From positions 1,687 through 65,686 of the IMG/VR virus record IMGVR_UViG_3300034062_004332: a stretch of DNA of 64,000 bases; one strand, given 5' to 3'. This document shows positions 5,194 through 53,597 of the stretch, one piece after another. The translations under genes were made by a program, and so were the position numbers. Source of the stretch: a virus. Taxonomy: Duplodnaviria > Caudoviricetes. The notes beneath the pieces were generated by a model that worked only from the letters and a program-made list of their open reading frames with translations, was not told where the DNA came from and made no database searches. Position 1 is the stretch's first letter, and the number at the start of each line of letters is the position of its first letter.

Positions 5194-5256
5194 GCTGTTC
5201 GTCTCACTGCAGCCTGCTCGTCGCGTCCTGTGCGCGATTTGTTTAGCTACAGTTGT

Positions 5257-5329
5257 GCGCTCGTGGCCGAATGGATTAGGCAGCATCCTTCTAAGATGCC
5301 TCATGGGGGTTCGAATCCCTCCGAGCGTG
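5257..5329 (+). tRNA. tRNA-Arg(UCU)
   Basis: Acceptor GCGCTCG/CGAGCGT, anticodon arm GCATC-CTTCTAA-GATGC, T-loop GTTCGAATC; no encoded CCA. Confidence 0.9.
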
Positions 5330-5340
5330 TTTAAAACATA

Positions 5341-9072: not shown

Positions 9073-9132
9073 GAGCCTTTCTGTGACAGCTCATTCTATT
9101 GCTAGACTGATCTTTAGAGACGGTAAGCAGCC

Positions 9133-10524: not shown

Positions 10525-10596
10525 GCCGGGCTAGCTCAGCGGTAGAGCAGCGCTTTTGTAAAGCGAAGGTCAGCGGTTCAAATCCGTTGTTCGGCT
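10525..10596 (+). tRNA. tRNA-Thr(UGU)
   Basis: GCCGGGC/GTTCGGC acceptor, TAGCTCAGCGGTAGAGC D-arm, loop TTTGTAA, GTTCAAATC. Confidence 0.9.
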
Positions 10597-12282: not shown

Positions 12283-12355
12283 GCGCGTCTAGCAATCTGG
12301 TGAATGCAGTGAACTCATAATTCACCTTAGGTGGGTTCAATTCCCACGACGCGCA
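12283..12355 (+). tRNA. tRNA-Met/Ile2(CAU)
   Basis: GCGCGTC/GACGCGC acceptor, GTGAA-CTCATAA-TTCAC anticodon arm, GTTCAATTC. Confidence 0.88.
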
Positions 12356-12358
12356 CCT

Positions 12359-12441
12359 GCCCTGGTGATGGAATTGGTAGACATAACGGACTTAAAATCC
12401 GTAGATCGCAGATCGTGCGGGTTCGAGTCCCGCTCAGGGCA
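12359..12441 (+). tRNA. tRNA-Leu(UAA)
   Basis: GCCCTGG/TCAGGGC acceptor, ACGGA-CTTAAAA-TCCGT, long variable arm, GTTCGAGTC. Confidence 0.92.
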
Positions 12442-12455
12442 CCTTCACTAATTCA

Positions 12456-21851: not shown

Positions 21852-24575
21852 ATGCCGAGTCGGGAATCGTTTGCTTACCGCCGTGGGACTCAGTTTAAAG
21901 CAGTTCGTGCGCAGGAGAGCGCTCCAGTAACCGTAGATAACATCTATGCTAAAGCGGCAAACGACTTCCAGACCTTCTGTACGGTACTGGATAAACCACC
22001 CGCTAAGCACATGTTAGAGTGGCACCAGCACTTAATTACAGGTGAGTCTAATAAGTACTTGCTAGATATTGCAGGACCTAATCTTGACATTTTAAGTCCG
22101 CGAGGGCCTCTGCATCCAGACACAGAGGTTGCAACTCCCTTGGGCTGGAGGCCACTTAAAAATTTAAATATAGGAGATTTGGTTTACGGGGACGACGGTG
22201 AGCCAACAGAAGTTCTAGATGTAATGTCCTACGGTTCCACAAAGTTATTTGAGGTGACGTTTTCGGATGGAACTTCAATGGTTTGTGATGCGTCGCATCG
22301 GTTTGATGTCAGACGCATGGGGACAGACCCAAAGGGGACCTACCGTACAATGACTTTGCAGGAGATAAAAGATTTTGTTACTACTGGGATTAAAGGTAAC
22401 TGGAGGACCGGGATTCAGCGCACAGTGCGCCAAGCGTTGCCGGGAGAAACACCGTGGCTAGATACAAGAGGTCACAGCAGGTATCAGGTTCCGGTCACTG
22501 CTCCTATTAATTATCCAGAAGCTGATTTGCCTCTCCACCCTTATTTAATCGGTGTTCTTCTAGGGGATGGAGGTTTAACAGATAAAACTTCTATAAACCT
22601 CACAACTATTGATACAGATATAGTTGATTTTATTAATACTATCTTGCCTGAAGATACTATTTTAGTTGAGCGGTCGTATGAATCTCGGAAGTACTCATAT
22701 CAGTTTCAGACGACCCAGGGTGTAAAAAAAACTATTATAGATGGCAGAAGAGGAGGCTTTAAAAAAGAAATTTCTCTACATTTAGAGAACTTGGGTATGC
22801 GAGGTAAAGGGGCGTTAGAGAAGTCTATTCCTAAACAATATTTATATGGGTCTGTGGAGCAGCGTGAATGGCTTCTGCGCGGCCTTATGGATACGGATGG
22901 CACACGAATGTCTCGTAGCCAGCATCAAAGCGATTCTGGTCGCGGAGGGTTAGCGTTCGGTAGCTCTAGCCTACAACTTATTACAGACTTTATAGAGCTT
23001 GTACGCTCTTTAGGTGGTGTTGCGTACTTTAATAAACCATATTATCCTCATTACTTTAAAGGCAAAGAAAAGATTGTAAGTAAAAATTTAGCTTATAGAT
23101 GCAGCTTTGCATTGCCTGCTGACATCAAGCCGTTTTTCTGCAAACGTAAGTCTGACGCTTATAAGGGTCCAGTATCTTCTAGATCTAATCGAGGTGTCGT
23201 TCGATCGATTATAGACATTAAACCGTGCGGGGAGAGCCCTGTAATGTGTATCCGCGTGGCTAATCCAAAAGAACGTTTCGTTATAAAAGATTATGTAGTT
23301 AGTAAAAATAGCGCCAAATCTACGGTCTTGAATTTATTTACTGCATGGATTATTGGGAGGCACACCAGCGCTCAGTTGCCTCTACAGATTATTTACGTTT
23401 CGTACAACATCAATACGGCTATACCGAAGAGTCGGATTATCAAGCAGATCATCGACTCTGTTGAGTTCAAGAAGGTATTCCCTCGTGTAAAACTCAAGAC
23501 GGGGATGCAGTCAGACGTTGGCTGGTCAATTGATTTTGAGTACGCTGGTATCCCTCGCGTAGGTGATGAAGAATTTACTCTAAGAGCTGCAGGATTAAGA
23601 GGATCAATTACATCAAAAAGGGCTCACCTTGTTATTATAGATGACCCGATCAAGTCAAGTACCGACATTAAGAACCCTATTATTAGAGAAGAGATGAATA
23701 ACAACTGGTCTTCTGTGATCTCTCCAATTATTTTTGAAGGTGGACGCTCTATATGTCTAGGGACGCGCTTCCACCCACTCGATATTCACAAAACTCTCTT
23801 CGTGGAGTCTAAGGGCTGGAAGCAGGTTACGCAAGAGGCTTTGACCTATGACAACCATGGTAATGCGATCAGTTACTGGCCCGAGCAGTGGTCTGTGAGC
23901 TACCTGCAACAGCAGAAGGAGCTGGACCCCGTGGCTTTTGCCTTCCAGTATCAACAGCAGCCCGTACTAACCTCTGATTTGATCGTTTCGCCTGAGTTGC
24001 TTGTCAAAGGTGAGGTAGTTACAGAGTTTGATTCGCTAGCGGTCGGCATTGACTTGTCGGCCAGCAGGAATGAAACCAGCGACTACACGGCTTTCGTGTT
24101 GGGCGGACGGCTCAAAGATATGTACTACATAATCGACGCGCACCAGTGTCGAAGTATCGGCAACTTAGAGAAGATTGATTTATTGTGTGACATGTTATTA
24201 GAGTGGGGGATTTTGGTTAAACAGGACAACATCTATGCACCTACATACTCCACGGTGACACTCGTGGTCGAATCCGTGGCGTATCAGGCGTCCTTGGCAG
24301 CGGACATCAAACGGGTCTTAATTAACGAGCGCGAATTGACGAATTTAAATATCCATGAAGTCAAAGGGTTCCGGGGCGACAAGCTGTCGCGTTTCCGAGG
24401 TACACTTGGTATCCTTGAACACAAGAAGGTGGTGTTTAACAAATATCGCAAGTTTGATGCGCTATTTGAACAGTTGATTAATGTGGGTGCTACGTCTCAC
24501 GATGACTTACTGGATGCTTACACACACCTGATCACGTTCCTTCAGCGTCGCGGTAGTTTTTCGATCGAATACTGA
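21852..24575 (+). CDS. terL: Terminase large subunit with intein
   Basis: Walker A PRG|SAKST split by the intein; Walker B VIIDD; GTRFH; nuclease GIDLS...DYTA...HDDLLDA. Confidence 0.93.
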   Translation: MPSRESFAYRRGTQFKAVRAQESAPVTVDNIYAKAANDFQTFCTVLDKPPAKHMLEWHQHLITGESNKYLLDIAGPNLDILSPRGPLHPDTEVATPLGWRPLKNLNIGDLVYGDDGEPTEVLDVMSYGSTKLFEVTFSDGTSMVCDASHRFDVRRMGTDPKGTYRTMTLQEIKDFVTTGIKGNWRTGIQRTVRQALPGETPWLDTRGHSRYQVPVTAPINYPEADLPLHPYLIGVLLGDGGLTDKTSINLTTIDTDIVDFINTILPEDTILVERSYESRKYSYQFQTTQGVKKTIIDGRRGGFKKEISLHLENLGMRGKGALEKSIPKQYLYGSVEQREWLLRGLMDTDGTRMSRSQHQSDSGRGGLAFGSSSLQLITDFIELVRSLGGVAYFNKPYYPHYFKGKEKIVSKNLAYRCSFALPADIKPFFCKRKSDAYKGPVSSRSNRGVVRSIIDIKPCGESPVMCIRVANPKERFVIKDYVVSKNSAKSTVLNLFTAWIIGRHTSAQLPLQIIYVSYNINTAIPKSRIIKQIIDSVEFKKVFPRVKLKTGMQSDVGWSIDFEYAGIPRVGDEEFTLRAAGLRGSITSKRAHLVIIDDPIKSSTDIKNPIIREEMNNNWSSVISPIIFEGGRSICLGTRFHPLDIHKTLFVESKGWKQVTQEALTYDNHGNAISYWPEQWSVSYLQQQKELDPVAFAFQYQQQPVLTSDLIVSPELLVKGEVVTEFDSLAVGIDLSASRNETSDYTAFVLGGRLKDMYYIIDAHQCRSIGNLEKIDLLCDMLLEWGILVKQDNIYAPTYSTVTLVVESVAYQASLAADIKRVLINERELTNLNIHEVKGFRGDKLSRFRGTLGILEHKKVVFNKYRKFDALFEQLINVGATSHDDLLDAYTHLITFLQRRGSFSIEY
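22107..23309 (+). mobile_element. Intein (401 aa) with LAGLIDADG endonuclease, class-3-like
   Basis: PLHPDTEVATPLGW...VMCIRV...VVSKN|S; LAGLIDADG helices LIGVLLGDG and LRGLMDTDG. Confidence 0.9.
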
Positions 24576-30738: not shown

Positions 30739-30770
30739 GTGTAGACTTAGCTGGAGTTGGCTTAGTTACC

Positions 30771-33805: not shown

Positions 33806-36245
33806 TTGTTCGTCGACAATGATTTTCCGAAGCTGCTCGGTGCAGAACTCTACCGTCCGCATCAATAGGTGCCTAAGTGGTGAAAGTCACTTAGCAAATC
33901 CCGTGAATTGCTGGAATCCTTCTTCCAGTGCTTAACAACCCTTCGGGGGAACCTTGACAATCAGACCCGGCCACACCGGGCGCAAAATATTTAAAGACTT
34001 CTCTTTGAGCACGGAGGAGTCGAGGAAATCAGCAGCGAAGCCGCGTGGGAACATGCGGAACGTTCAGAGACTAGATGAAGTAATCCAGACCGGATGAAAC
34101 ATCCACGAGCGCGGGACACCCTACAGGTAAGCTGAGGGTGATGATATAGTCCGAGCTTACACGATAGTAAAGTGTAAGAACTAGAAGATAAAGAGCTTCT
34201 AGGATAACAATCTGCCTGCGTACGTTGTAGAGATGGCTGCGGAGCCTGTTGTAGTCCATGACTTCAGCAAGCAACCAGGCCAGACTGTGCAGCTTGACCG
34301 TTATCGGTTCTAGACTATTACCCTGGAACCCTAAGGTGAAAGCCTTAGTTTAACAAACTCCGTGAATTGCTGGAAGCCCTTCAACGCATTAAGCGCGGGT
34401 AATCAGCAGCCGAGCCAGGTGGTAACATCTGGAAGGTTCAGAGCATAGCTGTGTCTAATCTTTCTGCGACGGATTTTGAATTTGTTTTAGGCTGCGGCGT
34501 GGGAGATGGGAGTTTTTCTCTCATTTCTACTAAGCGAGGAGACAGAAACTATTACTACCCTCGTTTAAAAATTACGCACGGTGTTGAACAAGTTGATTAT
34601 CTGAGGTGGAAAGCTGATCGCATAAACTCGATCTTTAATCGGACGACCCCTGTATCGTACGTATTCAAGAAAGAGTCCAGAGAAGGCTGGAAAGACTTCG
34701 AAGGTTATGAGTACAAATTTACTCATTCTGATCTTCGACCGTTTTACGATTTGCTTTATCCCAATCTTCAGGGTTCAAAGAAAATTACTCGCGAGCTTCT
34801 CGCTGAGTTAAACGGTGTCCCCCTTGGACTTCTCTTTATGGATGACGGAAGCGGCGGTCTCTATCTGGAACAAAATAACCGCAAACTAAAAAGCGGTTAT
34901 AAACGATACGAGTATTTAGTTCCTCGTATCGAATTTGCAACCAACGGTTTTACTTCTGAGTGTGTGACGCTTTTAGCTGACTGGATAGCGTCTGTAAGCG
35001 GTTGCGGCACACGCATTAAACAGAAGACGAATCGAATTTGCATTGTCCAGAAAGACTGTTATAAATTTAGGGATTTTATAGATCCCTATGTGCCGATTTC
35101 CTGTATGCGATACAAACTAGACCTTGAAACTGTAAAAAGTTTCAAGCGAGTCCTTACGGGACAATAAGCAGCCACGAGTGCGGAGCCCCAAACGTAACCA
35201 GCCGTGGGTGATGATGTATGCCGACCTTACGGGATGATAAACCGTAAGAACTAGAGGATAAAAAGCCTTTAGGTTAACAAATGGGGGCAATCCCGGCTCT
35301 AAGGAATCGCGTGAGCGTACTGCAGAACAAACCATTGGTACTGCGAACAGCAGGAACATTGTCAAGGACAAAGTTCTTGTAACTCTTCGTGAGTACACAG
35401 GTCCTGCTGATCCTAGCGATCCTACTCAACCTAGCACTTTTAAGATTGCTAGAGAGACCCTGATTACCGCGCAGCGTTTACTGCTGGACACTGGTAATCT
35501 GACGGCCTTCCATCAATCTATTGGTTCTCTGACTCTGTTAGACGACTATAGAAGATGGCGCGACAGAGTGTTCATTAATGAACTCCTGAAGGCTGTTTCG
35601 AAGGGTCAATCTTCTGACACCCAAGGTGGTTACTACTACCCTGGTGATCTTGCAGTTGGTGCCCTTTCGTACGCTAACGCCGAGCAAGCCAAGTTCGACG
35701 TTAAGGACGATCTTCTCCGCGTGGTTAAGTCTCTGCGCAAGAGAAACGTCCCGACGTATCAGGATGGTTTTTATCGCTGTGTGTGCGATCCGACCTTCCT
35801 TATGCACCTGAGACAGAATAGCGACTTCCGTGAAGTTGCTCGCTATCCTGGCAACGGTCAGATCAACCCTCTCATGTCTTCGATGCAGCCTAACGCTGCT
35901 ATCTACATGGGTCAGGGTTTCGGTCAGGCTACTTTTGTAGCCGGTGAACCGATCATGCCCACTGGATTTGTGTTCGAAGGCGTTAGATTTTTCGAGAGCA
36001 CAAACATGCCCTCGCAGAGTCAAACTGCCACGATCGCTTCTACTAGCGCTTCGTACGAAACTGCCATCGGCATGTTCTTCGGCCCTCAGAGCGTCGGTGT
36101 GGGTATCGGCGGCAACAACGCTCAAGTGTTGTTGAATAATAACGACGATTTCAGCAGATTTATCATGATGATTTGGAGCCTGTACGCAGGTTTCGAACTC
36201 CTGAACGCTGATTTCGCCACCATCGCTTATTCCTTCAACGCTTGA
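33806..36245 (+). CDS. Major capsid protein, spliced: join(33806..33862,34215..34311,35284..36245), 371 aa
   Basis: GGAGG SD + TTG; spliced frame MFVDNDFPKLLGAELYRPH|PAYVVEM...DRYRF|WGNPGSKE... continuous with ORF 35568..36245. Confidence 0.85.
33863..34214 (+). mobile_element. Group I intron 1 (352 nt, no ORF)
   Basis: Exon U with IGS GUGC; core GAATTGCTGGAA, AATCAGCAG, GTTCAGAGACTA, GATATAGTCC; terminal G. Confidence 0.92.
34312..35283 (+). mobile_element. Group I intron 2 (972 nt) with homing endonuclease
   Basis: P1 GGTTCT/GGAACC; GAATTGCTGGAA, AATCAGCAG, GTTCAGAGCATA, GATGTATGCC; terminal G. Confidence 0.92.
34451..35167 (+). CDS. Intron-encoded LAGLIDADG homing endonuclease
   Basis: VLGCGVGDGS and GLLFMDDGS double motif; SCMRYK end. 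Confidence 0.88.
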   Translation: MSNLSATDFEFVLGCGVGDGSFSLISTKRGDRNYYYPRLKITHGVEQVDYLRWKADRINSIFNRTTPVSYVFKKESREGWKDFEGYEYKFTHSDLRPFYDLLYPNLQGSKKITRELLAELNGVPLGLLFMDDGSGGLYLEQNNRKLKSGYKRYEYLVPRIEFATNGFTSECVTLLADWIASVSGCGTRIKQKTNRICIVQKDCYKFRDFIDPYVPISCMRYKLDLETVKSFKRVLTGQ

Positions 36246-49293: not shown

Positions 49294-49573
49294 TGCAATA
49301 AAAAGCTCTAGACACGAACGCAGAGTCGCTTTCCACGGGTTTGCGCCGGAGGCAAAGCACGATTACAAATTCAACAGACGCTTAGACATTCGGCTAGCAG
49401 GCCAAGTGTGGAGCGAAAGTCCAGCCGAACGGAATCGTCGTTTAGCTAAAGAGCGGATGCGGGAGCGCTCTAAAGCAAACCCAGTTTGGTTCGATCGGAC
49501 AGACGTGGCCGGCCCCGATAACGACTACCGCACTCGTGAGGTACTTACGTATAAACCCGTCCCAAATTACTGA
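49286..49573 (+). CDS. Hypothetical protein
   Basis: 95 aa, coupled; contains RLAGQVW. Confidence 0.6.
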   Translation: MSDAIKSSRHERRVAFHGFAPEAKHDYKFNRRLDIRLAGQVWSESPAERNRRLAKERMRERSKANPVWFDRTDVAGPDNDYRTREVLTYKPVPNY

Positions 49574-50159
49574 AAGTTTCTTTAAATTCATACATACGTT
49601 TTTCTGTATTATAAAACGCGGGTACGTATAATATAAACCCATGACACTTAACTGACTGCAATTTAGGGAGTCCGTTTTCTTCGCATATCAATCTAGGTCT
49701 TTCTTTTAGCACACAAATTGGCAAGTCTATGCCAAGTTTTTGTGTTGTAATTAAAGCTACTTCTGTCGACGTTAAAAATATAATGGCTTCGTCGTATTCT
49801 TGTTTATTATATTTACGTAATGCTAACTCTAGCCACACGCGTTGCGCCGACTTTTTGAATCGAGTTTTTTTAACAAAAAGTCTTGTGTCTTTCGGTTGAT
49901 CGTTGTGCTCTAGAAAATCCCTTGGAGGATATAAATAAACTGTTTTAGCTCGCCATTCTTGTGTTAGCCCGTTTTCTAAGAATGTAAAGTAACGAGCTGC
50001 GTCAACAATCGTATTAGCTAAGTCACTTGACGCTGGGTCTAAGTCTATAGATCCGTTAAAAAACGCCGTGGCGGTTCCGATTACGTCAGGAGGTGAAACG
50101 TAGTCACAGACCTTGGGCAGCTTCTTCGGCTTGTTGGTCGATTCGCTGGCTGATTTCAT
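49545..50159 (-). CDS. Phage Dam-like N6-adenine methyltransferase homolog (atypical motif IV)
   Basis: SIDLDPASS..ENGLTQEW..VYLYPPR. Confidence 0.7.
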   Translation of the reverse strand: MKSASESTNKPKKLPKVCDYVSPPDVIGTATAFFNGSIDLDPASSDLANTIVDAARYFTFLENGLTQEWRAKTVYLYPPRDFLEHNDQPKDTRLFVKKTRFKKSAQRVWLELALRKYNKQEYDEAIIFLTSTEVALITTQKLGIDLPICVLKERPRLICEENGLPKLQSVKCHGFILYVPAFYNTEKRMYEFKETFSNLGRVYT

Positions 50160-50523
50160 CTAAATCCAACAAATGAATGCTCATGCCATCGCTATCTACC
50201 ATTACGACTACTGGTGTTGTGTTGTCTGAGTTTTTTTCAATAACATTGAGTGTTTTTTGCAGAAACTCTTTTGTATCGGTATCCATTAACTCTTCAGCTA
50301 ATATAATGTCATTATAGATTTCTTTAGTCGTCATATACAAAGAATTTAAAGGAGACATTGTGTTAAAAAACAGTGCTCCTAATCCTGATGCAGTTCTAAA
50401 CTCGTTATACAATGTGGTCATATCACCCAAAATAACTTTGAGTGCGTTCTTTGCGATTCGATTTTGCACCTCTGACTTGCTAAACAGCTTGTTTCCAAGT
50501 GCTTTAATGTTGTCGTTGGTCAT
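50104..50523 (-). CDS. Hypothetical protein
   Basis: MTNDNIK start, coupled operon. Confidence 0.65.
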   Translation of the reverse strand: MTNDNIKALGNKLFSKSEVQNRIAKNALKVILGDMTTLYNEFRTASGLGALFFNTMSPLNSLYMTTKEIYNDIILAEELMDTDTKEFLQKTLNVIEKNSDNTTPVVVMVDSDGMSIHLLDLDEISQRIDQQAEEAAQGL

Positions 50524-50527
50524 GTTG

Positions 50528-50842
50528 TTAACCGTAGTTAGTGAAAGAATTCCAAGCATCAGCTAAAACACGATTTAAGTTAAACCTGTAGTTAGCTGTG
50601 TTTTTTTCGTCTGGCGTCAGTTTACAGTAGTGTCTACGTTCAACCAGCCCAGACGATCCGTTAGAAACAATACCTTGAAATATCAGTTTATCGATGGACG
50701 CTGAGCTGACGCCAAGCGAAGTAGCGACTGTCTTTTTGTCGACCAGGACCGTCGTGGGCGCATCCTCAGTGCCAGAAGCGAGGATCTTTAAAGACAAGTC
50801 AATGCTTTTAAGAACCTCTAGATACTCTTTGTTGATTTCCAT
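50528..50842 (-). CDS. HTH-like hypothetical protein
   Basis: VDKKTVATSLGVSSASIDKLI; ATG at 50842. Confidence 0.6.
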   Translation of the reverse strand: MEINKEYLEVLKSIDLSLKILASGTEDAPTTVLVDKKTVATSLGVSSASIDKLIFQGIVSNGSSGLVERRHYCKLTPDEKNTANYRFNLNRVLADAWNSFTNYG

Positions 50843-50850
50843 AATGTGAA

Positions 50851-50970
50851 GGGGCCGCCGATCCACCTAGTACTAGGCAGATCAGATCGCTTGCGTCGGA
50901 CAGGAAAGGACGAAAACTGTCCGAGCCCCATAGTAACCGCACTCCGGTCCTTCTTACGGAATACGGTCGC
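50851..50970 (-). ncRNA. Candidate cis-regulatory RNA with kissing loops
   Basis: Three hairpins, two with G-U pairs on the minus strand; loop GAAGGAC complementary to loop GUCCUUU; TAAAAT immediately upstream. Confidence 0.6.
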
Positions 50971-50976
50971 TTTATT

Positions 50977-51360
50977 TTAGGTCTGTTTAAGCCACGCTGC
51001 ACCTGACGCGCATTTAGCCCGCAACGTAGGTTCGTAACTAGACCTGTAGTGGGCGGGGTTTATACAGTTGCTAGTATTGCATAGTTTTTTTAATGGCTCG
51101 TTATTTACGTCTGCTTTATAAAACGCGTAATATAGGTTCTCTATTTTGATGTATTCTCCAAAAATCTTTAAGCGTGTGTAAGACGTAGGCCAACAGTCAG
51201 CTAGATCTCTGTTCTGCAAAGTCAACTGCGAAAAAAGAGCCCGTAGATCGGGCTCTAGATCGCGTACGTCTGGCTGGCGTGGTTCTAAATGAATTTGTTT
51301 GAGACACTCCTGGCAGACTTTTTCGGTTTTCTTGTGGTTTTTGTTTCGTATGCACTTCAT
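50977..51360 (-). CDS. His-Me/HNH zinc-binding-loop protein
   Basis: DCWP...CNTSNCINPAH. Confidence 0.6.
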   Translation of the reverse strand: MKCIRNKNHKKTEKVCQECLKQIHLEPRQPDVRDLEPDLRALFSQLTLQNRDLADCWPTSYTRLKIFGEYIKIENLYYAFYKADVNNEPLKKLCNTSNCINPAHYRSSYEPTLRAKCASGAAWLKQT

Positions 51361-51788
51361 AGCATCGCTTCAAGTCTCGGCACAAAATCCACAGGATCAT
51401 CAATCAACAGTTGAATAAGTGTATTCAATCGATCGTTAAGTCTTTCTTCTGACTCTTCTCGCTCATTCAGCAGCAGCCAGTATGTGTAAGCGTTTAAGAG
51501 ATACAGATGAGTTTGCCGTGCTCTCAACGCTTGCGTTTTCCACTTTTCAAAATCAAAGTTCGATTGATGGCGGCTGTTACCTGTCTTCAGTTCCAGCTCA
51601 CGAATCTGAATCTGTAACTCAATGTCCTCGATGGTGTATTTCAGCGAGGAGATTTTGGCTCTGCACTCAGACAGATTGTTTGGTTGTTCGTTGTCTGTGT
51701 AAATCCAAGCGGGCAGATTTTCGATGACATAGCGTTTGTCCCACAAGCAGGACTTCGCGTCAGCGTGGACTGTAAAAGAGTTAGTCAT
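51357..51788 (-). CDS. Coiled-coil hypothetical protein
   Basis: 143 aa, ATGA-coupled. Confidence 0.65.
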   Translation of the reverse strand: MTNSFTVHADAKSCLWDKRYVIENLPAWIYTDNEQPNNLSECRAKISSLKYTIEDIELQIQIRELELKTGNSRHQSNFDFEKWKTQALRARQTHLYLLNAYTYWLLLNEREESEERLNDRLNTLIQLLIDDPVDFVPRLEAML

Positions 51789-52117
51789 AGACCAAGTACA
51801 GTGTTAATCAGATCATTAAACGTGCCGTTAATTACGTACAGCACATGACTCTCAAAGTTAACTTTGATGATTAGTTCGAGTGCGGTAAGTTGCCGCAACG
51901 CTCTTTGGAGTCGGTCTTTAGGAATATAGTATTCTTTTTGGATCTCAGACGTTGAGAGCGGCTGATTGAAGCTTAACAACCGCAGTAACTCGTGGTGACG
52001 GCGGATTGCTGCCAGTCTTTGCGGATTAGTTGAATAGTTCTGAGGGAGATTTTCTTTTGATACTTTTTCTGTAGAAGTTCTACGATCGTTCTGGTTGTGA
52101 TTTGAAGCTTGATCCAT
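51785..52117 (-). CDS. Winged-helix protein
   Basis: QPLSTSEIQKEYYIPKDRLQRALRQLTALELI. Confidence 0.55.
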   Translation of the reverse strand: MDQASNHNQNDRRTSTEKVSKENLPQNYSTNPQRLAAIRRHHELLRLLSFNQPLSTSEIQKEYYIPKDRLQRALRQLTALELIIKVNFESHVLYVINGTFNDLINTVLGL

Positions 52118-52668
52118 TCATCAATGTCGTTTTGCATTTGAGGAGTTATCTTTTTAGCTGGGCTCTTACCGATCATCATGTGATGCGGGTTTAAGCAGGC
52201 GGAATCACCGCAAGTAGATAGTACATGATCGTCGGGCGCCAGATCAACACCGTGGTGGACCTGATAAACGCATCGACGGGGGCGCATAATCTGCCCCTCA
52301 GAAACAAAACGCTTTAAGTTTTCAGGTAGGTATAAGTGCTGCTCTTTATCTAAGGCCAGTTTGTTGCGACGAATCCACGCTTCAACGTGATGGGTGCGGC
52401 TTTTGCACTGCTTGTACTCGGTTATGCAGCAACTGCACGCCAAAATCCCGTGAACCGGACTGGCTTTCTTTAAATCGCTCAGTGCGGCGTGGATTTTGTC
52501 GGATCGACCGCAGAGACAAGTCAAGACCGCTTCGGATTCCCAGGCTTCGACCTGAAAATTGCCCCATTTATAGGTCTCAAGGGGCGGCGTGTCGGGCACC
52601 GTTATCGGTATTGGGTCCAGAACCCCGAGACAAAGGGTGAGGGGGCTGATGCCAGGGACAGACAGCAT
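51973..52668 (-). CDS. His-Me/HNH zinc-binding-loop protein
   Basis: RRCVYQVHHG...STCGDSACLNPHHM. Confidence 0.6.
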   Translation of the reverse strand: MLSVPGISPLTLCLGVLDPIPITVPDTPPLETYKWGNFQVEAWESEAVLTCLCGRSDKIHAALSDLKKASPVHGILACSCCITEYKQCKSRTHHVEAWIRRNKLALDKEQHLYLPENLKRFVSEGQIMRPRRCVYQVHHGVDLAPDDHVLSTCGDSACLNPHHMMIGKSPAKKITPQMQNDIDEWIKLQITTRTIVELLQKKYQKKISLRTIQLIRKDWQQSAVTTSYCGC

Positions 52669-53060
52669 ACAGAGACTCCAAGTGCTACCAGCATAGCAGA
52701 GTGCATACAGCGCACACAGTAGATAGCTCAGCCGGTCGGGTTCTATTTTTTTACTCTTACTTTATAAAGGGAATTCCCTTAACCAAATTTCGCCTTTTTT
52801 GGACTCTGTAGCTAAGTGCAGACTTTTGGTGCAGTTCAAACACCCTGTATTTACATAATAATATTTTAAATACGATATAGAATTGCAGTCAAGTGCAGTT
52901 TACGTTAAGTCAGGCGTGATTTAAAAAGAGTTTTGGTAGTACGTTTTGGGGTTCGCCGTGGTAGTTACGATTTCCTGATATTCGGTTATCTGGAACTGCC
53001 GTTTTTTGGCACTTGTTTCTGATTTAAGTGTATCCTTGATACATGCGTTTTAAAAAGACT

Positions 53061-53216
53061 ATGACAACTACTACTCGTACTCGGCAGGGACCCGTACAGG
53101 ACCCTGAGGCTGAATTTTGGGCCGAGTGCCGTAGACGTGCCATGAAGCTCAACGTTCCGGCATGGGCTATCGCTGAGCAATGGTACACACACGATCTGCT
53201 TGACAAGCGGTCCTGA
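53061..53216 (+). CDS. Small hypothetical protein (51 aa)
   Basis: MTTTTRTRQGPVQDPEAEFWAECRRRAMKLNVPAWAIAE... Confidence 0.5.
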   Translation: MTTTTRTRQGPVQDPEAEFWAECRRRAMKLNVPAWAIAEQWYTHDLLDKRS

Positions 53217-53249
53217 GGCTCATACGCTGCGGCAGGCTCACCCATCAAC

Positions 53250-53597
53250 ATGTCTGCCGCACAATCTAAAAATGTAAAAACTTGGGACGCTCGTAGGCAG
53301 CGTTTCGATGAAATGTTTTCTATGTGTCTTGATGGTAAAACGTTATCTGAGATTGGAGATCATTACGGTATCTCAAAACAAGCTGTAAGTGGGTTCTTAC
53401 GATGTAATGCAAACCCAAAACAGTTTGAAATAATCCAAGAGTGTTTTAATAAACGTTTGACTGGTATTTGGCGTGAAGAAGATATTGTTTTTGCGTTACA
53501 GTCTGGTCTTACATGTTCTAAAGTTGCTGAAGTTGTTGGTTGTCATGTAAGCACAGTCAAAAGGGTTTCGGCGCGACGTAAGAAAGCACAGGCATAA
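53250..53597 (+). CDS. Double-HTH DNA-binding protein
   Basis: GKTLSEIGDHYGISKQAV and GLTCSKVAEVVGCHVSTVKR. Confidence 0.75.
   Translation: MSAAQSKNVKTWDARRQRFDEMFSMCLDGKTLSEIGDHYGISKQAVSGFLRCNANPKQFEIIQECFNKRLTGIWREEDIVFALQSGLTCSKVAEVVGCHVSTVKRVSARRKKAQA

Follow-up and report, generated by a model that had tools for sequence, protein, structure and literature searches.

The minus strand of a 64,000-nucleotide stretch of phage DNA (positions 1,687 to 65,686 of the 65.7-kb IMG/VR virus record IMGVR_UViG_3300034062_004332; hereafter the window) carries, at positions 50979 to 50843, an element that is, as judged from the covariation of its helices and from its place outside the catalogued families, a new structured RNA family of the kind represented by structured leader RNAs and orphan riboswitch candidates. 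It consists of a hairpin followed by a three-way junction, with the loop of the hairpin paired to a loop of the junction domain, and it lies behind a promoter-like box and directly in front of a set of genes that includes a DNA-binding-type protein and a Dam-like protein. We see about an even chance that a phage transcript begins with this RNA as its extreme 5' leader, through which the genes behind it are controlled in cis; most likely, a bound factor would in this way set translation or stability.

Fold and architecture of the element

An earlier note, made before any database search, had described a riboswitch-like leader that starts with TAAAAT, continues through hairpins and a junction closed by GGGGC/GCCCC, and ends 8 nucleotides before an ATG. 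Each of these features lies exactly where that note had placed it, and the irregularities of the stems are G-U pairs on the minus strand, as it had said:

50979–50974, minus strand: TAAAAT, the form that the family box TA(G/A)A(C/A)T takes in the window, probably a −10 hexamer; contains the TAA stop codon (50979–50977) of an upstream open reading frame (ORF) of 127 amino acids
50967–50936, minus strand: hairpin P1, ACCGUAUUCCG[ UAAGAAGGAC ]CGGAGUGCGGU, with an 11-bp stem (50967–50957 with 50946–50936) and the 10-nucleotide loop L1 (50956–50947)
50952–50947, minus strand: AAGGAC in L1, 5' strand of the pseudoknot, pairs with 50911–50906
50935–50930, minus strand: linker J1/2, UACUAU, unpaired in the consensus; U first in 45/59 sequences, then A in 47/59
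50929–50925 with 50855–50851, minus strand: helix P2, GGGGC/GCCCC, which closes the three-way junction domain 50929–50851
50924–50896, minus strand: hairpin P3, UCGGACAG + 13-nucleotide loop L3 (50916–50904) + CUGUCCGA, with an 8-bp stem
50911–50906, minus strand: GUCCUU in L3, 3' strand of the pseudoknot, pairs with 50952–50947
50895–50890, minus strand: junction J3/4, CGCAAG, with the core G-Y-A-A (G 58/59, Y 58/59, A 58/59, A 59/59)
50889–50856, minus strand: hairpin P4, GAUCUGCCUAG-UA-CUAGGUGGAUC within a longer helix, made of a 2-bp base, a 2-nucleotide bulge, a 13-bp helix and a 2-nucleotide YR loop
U50879-G50864, G50878-U50865 and C50877-G50866, minus strand: wobble and C-G block of P4 (U-G 72/72, G-U 63/72, C-G 72/72)
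50850–50843, minus strand: spacer UUCACAUU, 8 nucleotides, pyrimidine-rich, without a Shine-Dalgarno motif, followed by the ATG at 50842

On the minus strand, 50967–50851 adopts this structure, and RNAfold, which arrives at the same fold, gives a minimum free energy of −55.2 kcal/mol, compared with −41.75 ± 4.1 kcal/mol for shuffled sequences (z −3.28; 0/200 shuffles equal the native energy), and the plus strand of the same region folds ordinarily (z −1.14; 29/200 shuffles are equally good). The fold exceeds chance and is strand-specific. Beyond the helices, more than 12 unpaired positions show no or almost no variation: an AA on the 5' side of L1, UUUU and UC in L3, and GYAA in J3/4; across 59 sequences, the UUUU at the start of L3 and the UUUC tail with which this loop ends are present in 59/59. 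Some lengths are equally constrained, with P3 fixed at 8 bp and P4 at 2 + 13 bp across relatives. ARAGORN detected no tRNA-like or tmRNA-like gene at the element and found four tRNAs elsewhere in the window.

Relatives and covariation

Relatives were collected by aligning homologs of p104, the protein encoded directly behind the element, which gave at least 80 viral loci, and the same architecture is present in the 200 nucleotides upstream of the p104 gene in all of those recovered. A covariance model (R1), built from 25 diverse copies and without the pseudoknot, was then searched against four sets of sequences:

Window plus 79 loci: 80/80 with a match, exactly one copy each, 71–138 bits
Viral loci retrieved with an RNA-only pattern: 70/70, 77–138 bits
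Metagenome loci: 76/80, 57–131 bits
Pattern matches in 185,579 species genomes: 0/6

The R1 search revealed no second copy of the element in the window. The last set came from a search for prophage or host copies with a 59-nucleotide pattern that matches 52/82 loci; it hit six stretches in the 185,579 species genomes, none of which R1 confirmed. Neither blastn of 50400–51400 nor tblastn of p104 produced a match among 50,697 phage records.

Among 72 distinct sequences, 89.3% of alignment cells at the proposed helices form standard pairs, compared with 63.7% after shuffling, and 0/500 shuffles reach the native value. The covariation score is 0.667 versus 0.220 for shuffled alignments and 0.08–0.15 when pairing partners are slid by 1–3 columns; because the shuffle control ignores relatedness, the comparison with slid partners is the fairer test, which the structure clearly passes. 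Changes on both sides occur in 40/46 pairs. All 11 pairs of P1 vary; pair 15/51 does so on one side, the other ten on both. Double-sided changes are found in 6/6 pairs of P2 and 8/8 pairs of P3, and 12/15 pairs of P4 covary. By these alignments, all helices of the element covary. RNAalifold recovers P2, P3 and P4 from an unbiased MAFFT alignment, and when all column pairs are scanned for mutual information, the proposed helices come out on top; the same scan brought up no further pairs and no partner for the box or for other unpaired columns.

The element measures 132–138 nucleotides among relatives. No sense frame is open in 49/72 elements, and the offsets from the upstream stop codon to the ATG occupy each of the three frames (35, 27 and 17 of 79); these open-frame and frame-offset statistics rule out a protein-coding sequence or a read-through, frameshift or bypass signal.

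The same alignments bear on whether the conserved object is an RNA at all. The P4 loop consists of two bases, mostly CG or UA, so that the apex reads as a DNA palindrome (e.g., CCTGGCGCCAGG or CCTAGTACTAGG) in most members, and P4 could then be an operator for a helix-turn-helix (HTH) protein, an origin, or the target of a homing endonuclease, with no functional RNA involved. That HNH endonuclease genes insert next to the element, and in one locus inside a copy, would suit such a DNA-level site. However, what is kept are helices that covary and not their sequence, G-U pairs occur throughout, and the invariant U-G/G-U block of P4 would amount to A-C/C-A mismatches on the opposite strand. The covariation and the G-U pairs within the palindromic apex argue for selection at the RNA level. 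Only one strand folds well, moreover, and a pairing between two loops is meaningless in duplex DNA, so that we regard a DNA-level function as very improbable.

The loop-loop pseudoknot

Among all helices of the element, the loop-loop pseudoknot is, by covariation, the best supported. In the 72 distinct sequences, 431 of 432 cells are paired and four of the six pairs covary, with the variable pairs composed of AU 30/CG 19/GC 18/UA 5, GC 53/CG 17/UA 1, GC 57/GU 10/AU 5 and CG 31/UA 21/GC 19/GU 1. Extending the count to the 113 sequences that could be scored among the 114 distinct full-length sequences of alignments A4 and A5 gives 665 Watson-Crick and 13 G-U cells without a single mismatch, spread over 20 different loop pairings. 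This support is independent because the model that made the alignment had left the pseudoknot out.

The earlier note had called this contact a 7-bp kissing loop and had proposed covariation between the loops of homologs as a check; the complementarity proved both conserved and covarying. Six of the seven pairs are borne out in this way, whereas the seventh is not: among the 59 distinct sequences of alignment A3 (columns 32/84), it is G-U in 50/59 and an unpaired C/U in 9/59, with no compensation.

Known families and published motifs

The same note had not recognised the element as a member of a known family, and this judgment held throughout our searches. With Rfam 15 (4227 models) at gathering thresholds, the whole window has five matches, which are a group I intron and the four tRNAs, and none of them lies at the element. 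Relaxing the threshold to E ≤ 10 for positions 50700–51100 returned only a noise row to speF (9.9 bits compared with a cut-off of 37) on the opposite strand, and twenty related loci (105,913 bases) yielded 0 matches. One closely related body of published work is a catalogue of 8,495 candidate structured RNAs drawn from IMG/VR (Fremin, Bhatt, Kyrpides 2023; PMC10690425), which according to its main text shares with our approach the intergenic regions of IMG/VR as source and contains unnamed covarying motifs, some of them consistently upstream of one gene; its main-text passages, however, name no motif of this kind. Our literature search, made within a limited library and, for PMC10690425, in main-text passages, found no description of the motif, and it may already be part of that catalogue as a “DNAVirus_X” entry.

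A promoter-like box and a predicted transcript start

The box upstream of P1 reads TAGACT in 21, TAAACT in 19, TAAAAT in 10 and TAGAAT in three of 58 distinct relatives, with other versions in the remaining five. Its T, A and final T are invariant in 58/58, and it has the A at position 2 and the T at position 6 of a −10 hexamer. It often holds the stop codon of the upstream ORF; one subgroup reads CTA GAC TGA or TTA GAC TAA, with the box out of frame, and the retention of the box in a different reading frame marks it as a nucleic-acid signal. P1 begins exactly 7 nucleotides after the box at a spacing that is fixed, the seventh base 3' of the box is a purine in 57/58, and the first pair of P1 (columns 15/50 of alignment A3) is R-Y in 57/58 (GU 24, AU 19, GC 14).

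The TAGACT version is distributed like a signal in front of genes. It occurs 24 times in the window, 13 of them in the 9.4% of sequence outside rough ORF calls and mostly 20–50 nucleotides before a start codon on the same strand. Among 180 permutations of its letters it ranks first for location 15–60 nucleotides upstream of same-strand ORF starts, with 8/24 occurrences there in the window compared with 4.2% for the other permutations, and, among 40 related loci that each span 9 kb or more, 41/137 compared with 1710/43,011.

The appearance of a −10-only promoter is T-A-n-n-n-T without a −35 element, and TA(G/A)A(C/A)T is probably a promoter signal of this type in the phage family, as its composition and location suggest. 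T4-type late promoters consist of a −10 element alone; our box resembles them in that it keeps the T, A and final T of the −10 hexamer, lacks a −35 element and stands 20–50 nucleotides ahead of many genes. Its sequence, on the other hand, differs from that of the T4 late box. Should the box act as a promoter, transcription is predicted to start at 50967, the first base of P1, and the transcript would begin with a flush 5' hairpin. It is the box together with the fixed spacing to P1 that leads us to read the element as an extreme 5' leader, and apart from the RNA itself the analysis yields a candidate promoter signal for the whole phage family.

Several observations on promoters and regulators were made alongside. 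TAGACT and its variants TAAACT and TAGAAT stand 20–50 nucleotides upstream of many same-strand genes without a −35 element, e.g., at 9103, 25890, 30742, 38335, 46981, 55335 and 57386 on the plus strand, and the box at 30742 lies directly 3' of a T-run. A good sigma-70-like promoter on the minus strand (52892–52863; TTGACT, 18 nucleotides, TAAAAT) heads the leftward gene set. The divergent gene at 53250–53597 on the plus strand encodes 115 amino acids with two HTH motifs, one of them a match similar to sigma-70 region 4.

Genes downstream of the element

The element lies mid-way in a conserved leftward gene set on the same strand, and the genes behind it form a presumed transcription unit:

50842–50528, minus strand: p104, 104 amino acids, a probable winged helix-turn-helix protein, first downstream gene
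50559–49545, minus strand: p151 (function unassigned) and p204 (Dam-like), the rest of the presumed transcription unit

We found 22 homologs of p104 at 53–100% identity and no match to it in Pfam, in PHROG or among Protein Data Bank sequences (the latter at E ≤ 10). Its AlphaFold2 model has a pLDDT (predicted local distance difference test) value of 83.6; a fold search with Foldseek gave weak rows to excisionase-type and other winged-helix proteins, none of them at E ≤ 0.001, and the atlas leads HTH_17 and MerR_1 all stay below 0.9. The p104 protein is probably of the winged-helix DNA-binding type. The p204 protein matches Pfam Dam at E 0.0048, below the family cut-off, and phrog_111 at 2.7e-07. 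Across 79 loci, the gene order is p231 (75), the MarR-like p110 (56), p143 (77), an optional ORF B (24), the RNA element, p104 (79), p151 (79) and p204 (78). 

The distance from the end of the RNA to the next start codon is 8–13 nucleotides in 45/71 evaluable sequences, and the bases around that codon are mostly free of pairing (mean unpaired probability 0.65 in 71 sequences). Only 17 of the 77 ORFs of the window are preceded by Shine-Dalgarno-like 4-mers, so that the absence of such a motif in front of p104 is normal for this phage. The suggestion in the earlier note that the element is a cis-regulator or small RNA controlling an HTH/Dam-like operon draws support from the same-strand operon, the promoter-like box and the short spacing in those 45/71 sequences.

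Upstream of the box, the 127-amino-acid ORF (51360–50977, minus strand) is optional and occurs in 24/79 related loci. It ends with C-x-N-P-x-H, like a 231-amino-acid ORF at 51973–52668 that matches a PHROG endonuclease family, which may make it a mobile endonuclease gene that has degenerated. Within it, at 51256–51236, is a terminator-like hairpin.

Mobile genes beside the RNA

In four of 76 metagenome copies (loci L162, L230, L197 and L194), a homing-endonuclease gene of the HNH_3 + AP2 type, encoding 193–208 amino acids, lies between the RNA and p104; two of the inserted genes (L194 and L197) were run against Pfam. By hand count at the four loci, the ATG of the inserted gene is 11–17 nucleotides 3' of the RNA, which keeps the short spacing seen elsewhere and speaks for an action in cis, and in L162 p104 starts 13 nucleotides after the stop codon of the inserted gene. 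Locus L194 carries a second, partial copy of the element (junction, P4 and the 3' strand of P2; 3369–3466) directly before the ATG of p104, which differs in sequence from the full copy upstream; this pattern would fit homing into the DNA that encodes the RNA with co-conversion of the flanks. Mobile genes thus insert on either side of the unit of box and RNA, and inside a copy only in L194, where a second, full copy lies upstream. The displacement of p104 by about 600 nucleotides means that the RNA is not an obligatory operator of p104 translation, and the insertions favour a role at the transcript's head over that of a dedicated translational operator for p104.

These insertions also bear on two other ways in which the element could work. 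First, it could be a separate small non-coding RNA of about 125 nucleotides with its own promoter and a leaky end, acting in trans, e.g., on targets in host or phage or as a decoy, whose link to p104 would be synteny alone. Besides the promoter-like box of its own, one can cite the mobile genes that lie on either side of it and not inside (ORF B upstream in 24/79 loci, HNH genes downstream in 4/76) and a U-rich tract after P2 in many members. Yet the window scan detected no terminator at the element, a U-run follows the helix directly in only a minority of spacers (by eye, untallied), the short distance to the start codon in 45/71 sequences suggests coupling to the downstream cistron, and the loops that could serve as seeds are occupied by their mutual pairing. 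We therefore consider a trans-acting RNA unlikely.

Second, the nascent RNA could bind RNA polymerase and carry it past terminators, a form of processive antitermination. The antitermination RNA put of phage HK022 consists of two adjacent hairpins. Like put, our element would be a folded RNA, encoded by a phage and placed near a promoter, that acts in cis at the start of an operon; it is precisely folded, present in single copy and followed by a multi-gene unit in a phage regulatory region, and antitermination would explain why an insertion of 600 nucleotides before p104 is tolerated. The architecture is nevertheless a different one, and the terminator scan of the minus strand comes up empty from the element as far as the point where the unit's last gene begins; the sole downstream site (49735–49718) lies inside the Dam-like ORF. 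Such a function strikes us as improbable.

Weighing the leader against its alternatives

Our favoured reading, that of a cis-acting 5' leader, would work as follows. Transcription would start 7 nucleotides past the −10-only box TA(G/A)A(C/A)T, so that the first base of the transcript is the first base of P1. The RNA folds into P1 and the three-way junction of P2, P3 and P4, with the 6-bp kiss, as covariation shows, locking the loop of P1 onto that of P3, and the folded block ends some 10 nucleotides before the first start codon in a system that largely does without Shine-Dalgarno motifs. A partner, be it a protein, the ribosome or a small molecule, would recognise the precise fold, the invariant unpaired bases and the wobble block of P4, and the most likely outcome would be control of translation initiation of the first cistron and/or on 5'-end-dependent decay of the p104-p151-p204 transcript.

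Several findings weigh against this reading. On the side of the promoter, a scan revealed no −35 element (16–18 nucleotides upstream) at the element, 23 aligned box sites have no upstream consensus and neither a −35 element nor an activator site in front of them, and the window's own box is TAAAAT and not the enriched TAGACT. On the side of the target gene, p104 is found about 600 nucleotides from the RNA, behind an insertion, in L162, L230 and L197, and an extra hairpin moves the start codon some 55 nucleotides away in about five relatives. Such a hairpin, about 45 nucleotides long, lies between the RNA and the start codon of p104 in one subclade (L068, L070–L073, L154 and duplicates). Furthermore, every copy belongs to a single phage family in which synteny is conserved, and the tie to p104 is therefore not independent evidence of a functional link. 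As to mechanism, neither minimum-energy nor ensemble folds of 71 sequences contain a conserved helix that sequesters the start codon, and no conserved alternative pairing that could serve as an expression platform was found; a scan of 49300–53400 found no intrinsic terminator at 50843–50979, where the helix at the 3' end closes the three-way junction and is followed by UUCACAUU, which is not the form of an intrinsic terminator.

The last of these points touches most directly on a metabolite- or ion-sensing riboswitch, in which the pocket for a ligand would be made up of the junction and the kissing loop, and binding would alter expression of the regulatory operon. The conservation of unpaired positions is aptamer-like, as are the compact tertiary fold and the position in a 5' leader that follows from the box, and the RNA matches none of the catalogued families. 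But no expression platform was found, with no terminator at the element in the scan and a start region that is mostly unpaired; the downstream genes encode a DNA-binding-type protein, p151 and a Dam-like protein, none of them metabolic or for transport; the motif is limited to one phage lineage; and the invariant A/U runs beside the kiss could be purely structural, e.g., as base triples. A riboswitch in this strict sense is unlikely in our view, and it heads the order in which we would rank the alternatives, followed by the trans-acting small RNA, the put-like antitermination RNA and finally the DNA-level site.

Comparison with known leader RNAs

The purine riboswitch aptamer and the hammerhead ribozyme are three-way junctions held by loop-loop contacts. 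Our element shares with both a junction that is fixed by pairing between hairpin loops and that contains conserved nucleotides, and with the purine riboswitch also the position as a 5' leader. Unlike in these RNAs, the kiss joins P3 to a P1 that lies outside the junction and is connected to it by a 6-nucleotide linker; it is a regular 6-bp helix that covaries, and the Rfam models of both RNAs do not match. The cobalamin riboswitch has a kissing loop between its aptamer and a regulatory hairpin, so that there, too, a hairpin elsewhere in the leader is held by a kissing loop to a junction domain of several helices. In our element, by contrast, the hairpin outside the junction stands on the 5' side of it and contains no ribosome-binding site, and there is no match in sequence or to the model.

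Another parallel is offered by protein-bound, pseudoknotted translational operators in phage and ribosomal-protein leaders, among them the leader of T4 gene 32, a case cited in passages of PMC10690425. As in leaders of this type, a pseudoknot immediately precedes a phage gene whose product is of a nucleic-acid-binding type, and by analogy autoregulation by the encoded protein is plausible. The differences are that p104 resembles a DNA-binding winged helix and that the RNA is intact where p104 has moved by 600 nucleotides.

The phages that carry the element

The phage of the window is a tailed double-stranded DNA phage with genes for terminase, portal-like, head and tail fibre proteins and endolysins. 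Its nearest isolate is the Synechococcus phage S-EIV1, with a large terminase subunit (TerL) that is 51.5% identical over 57% of the query, and R1 has no match in the 79,178 bases of S-EIV1. The sequence of the window turns up in DNA from 13 studies of lake and freshwater metagenomes, two of them perhaps its source; no RNA run was listed with it. By sequence, the phages that carry the element are uncultured aquatic relatives of S-EIV1.

Elsewhere in the window, the large terminase ORF (21852–24575, plus strand; 907 amino acids) aligns to the S-EIV1 terminase in three pieces over 57% of its length and may, from this alignment, carry an insertion. A group I intron (Rfam, 72.3 bits; 33840–34173, plus strand) adjoins an ORF for a LAGLIDADG homing endonuclease (34451–35167, plus strand) upstream of a head-protein match (35568–36245), and the head gene may be split by this intron. 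The four phage tRNA genes (Arg-TCT, Thr-TGT, Met-CAT and Leu-TAA) lie at 5256–5330, 10525–10596 and 12283–12443 on the plus strand.

Implications

Complex RNA folds that are well supported and at the same time without an assigned function are rare, and earlier orphan folds of this kind often proved to be riboswitches, ribozymes or protein-binding regulators. The evidence for the element described here is unusually clean, above all for its tertiary contact, and illustrates that a genuine new RNA family can be spotted from raw sequence alone. At about 120 nucleotides, the RNA is a concrete object for synthesis and probing in vitro.

For the biology of these phages, what matters is that the element heads a regulatory gene set in widespread, uncultured lake phages related to a Synechococcus phage. 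A bolder form of the leader reading, which we hold to be less probable yet worth stating, is that it founds a sensor class of its own, which would bind a host metabolite or signal as a riboswitch or else dock directly on the ribosome or on RNA polymerase. If this were true, the kissing-loop three-way junction would be a new ligand- or machine-binding fold, and a lineage of lake cyanophages would read the state of its host cell through it, timing a winged-helix/Dam-like operon from a late-type promoter.

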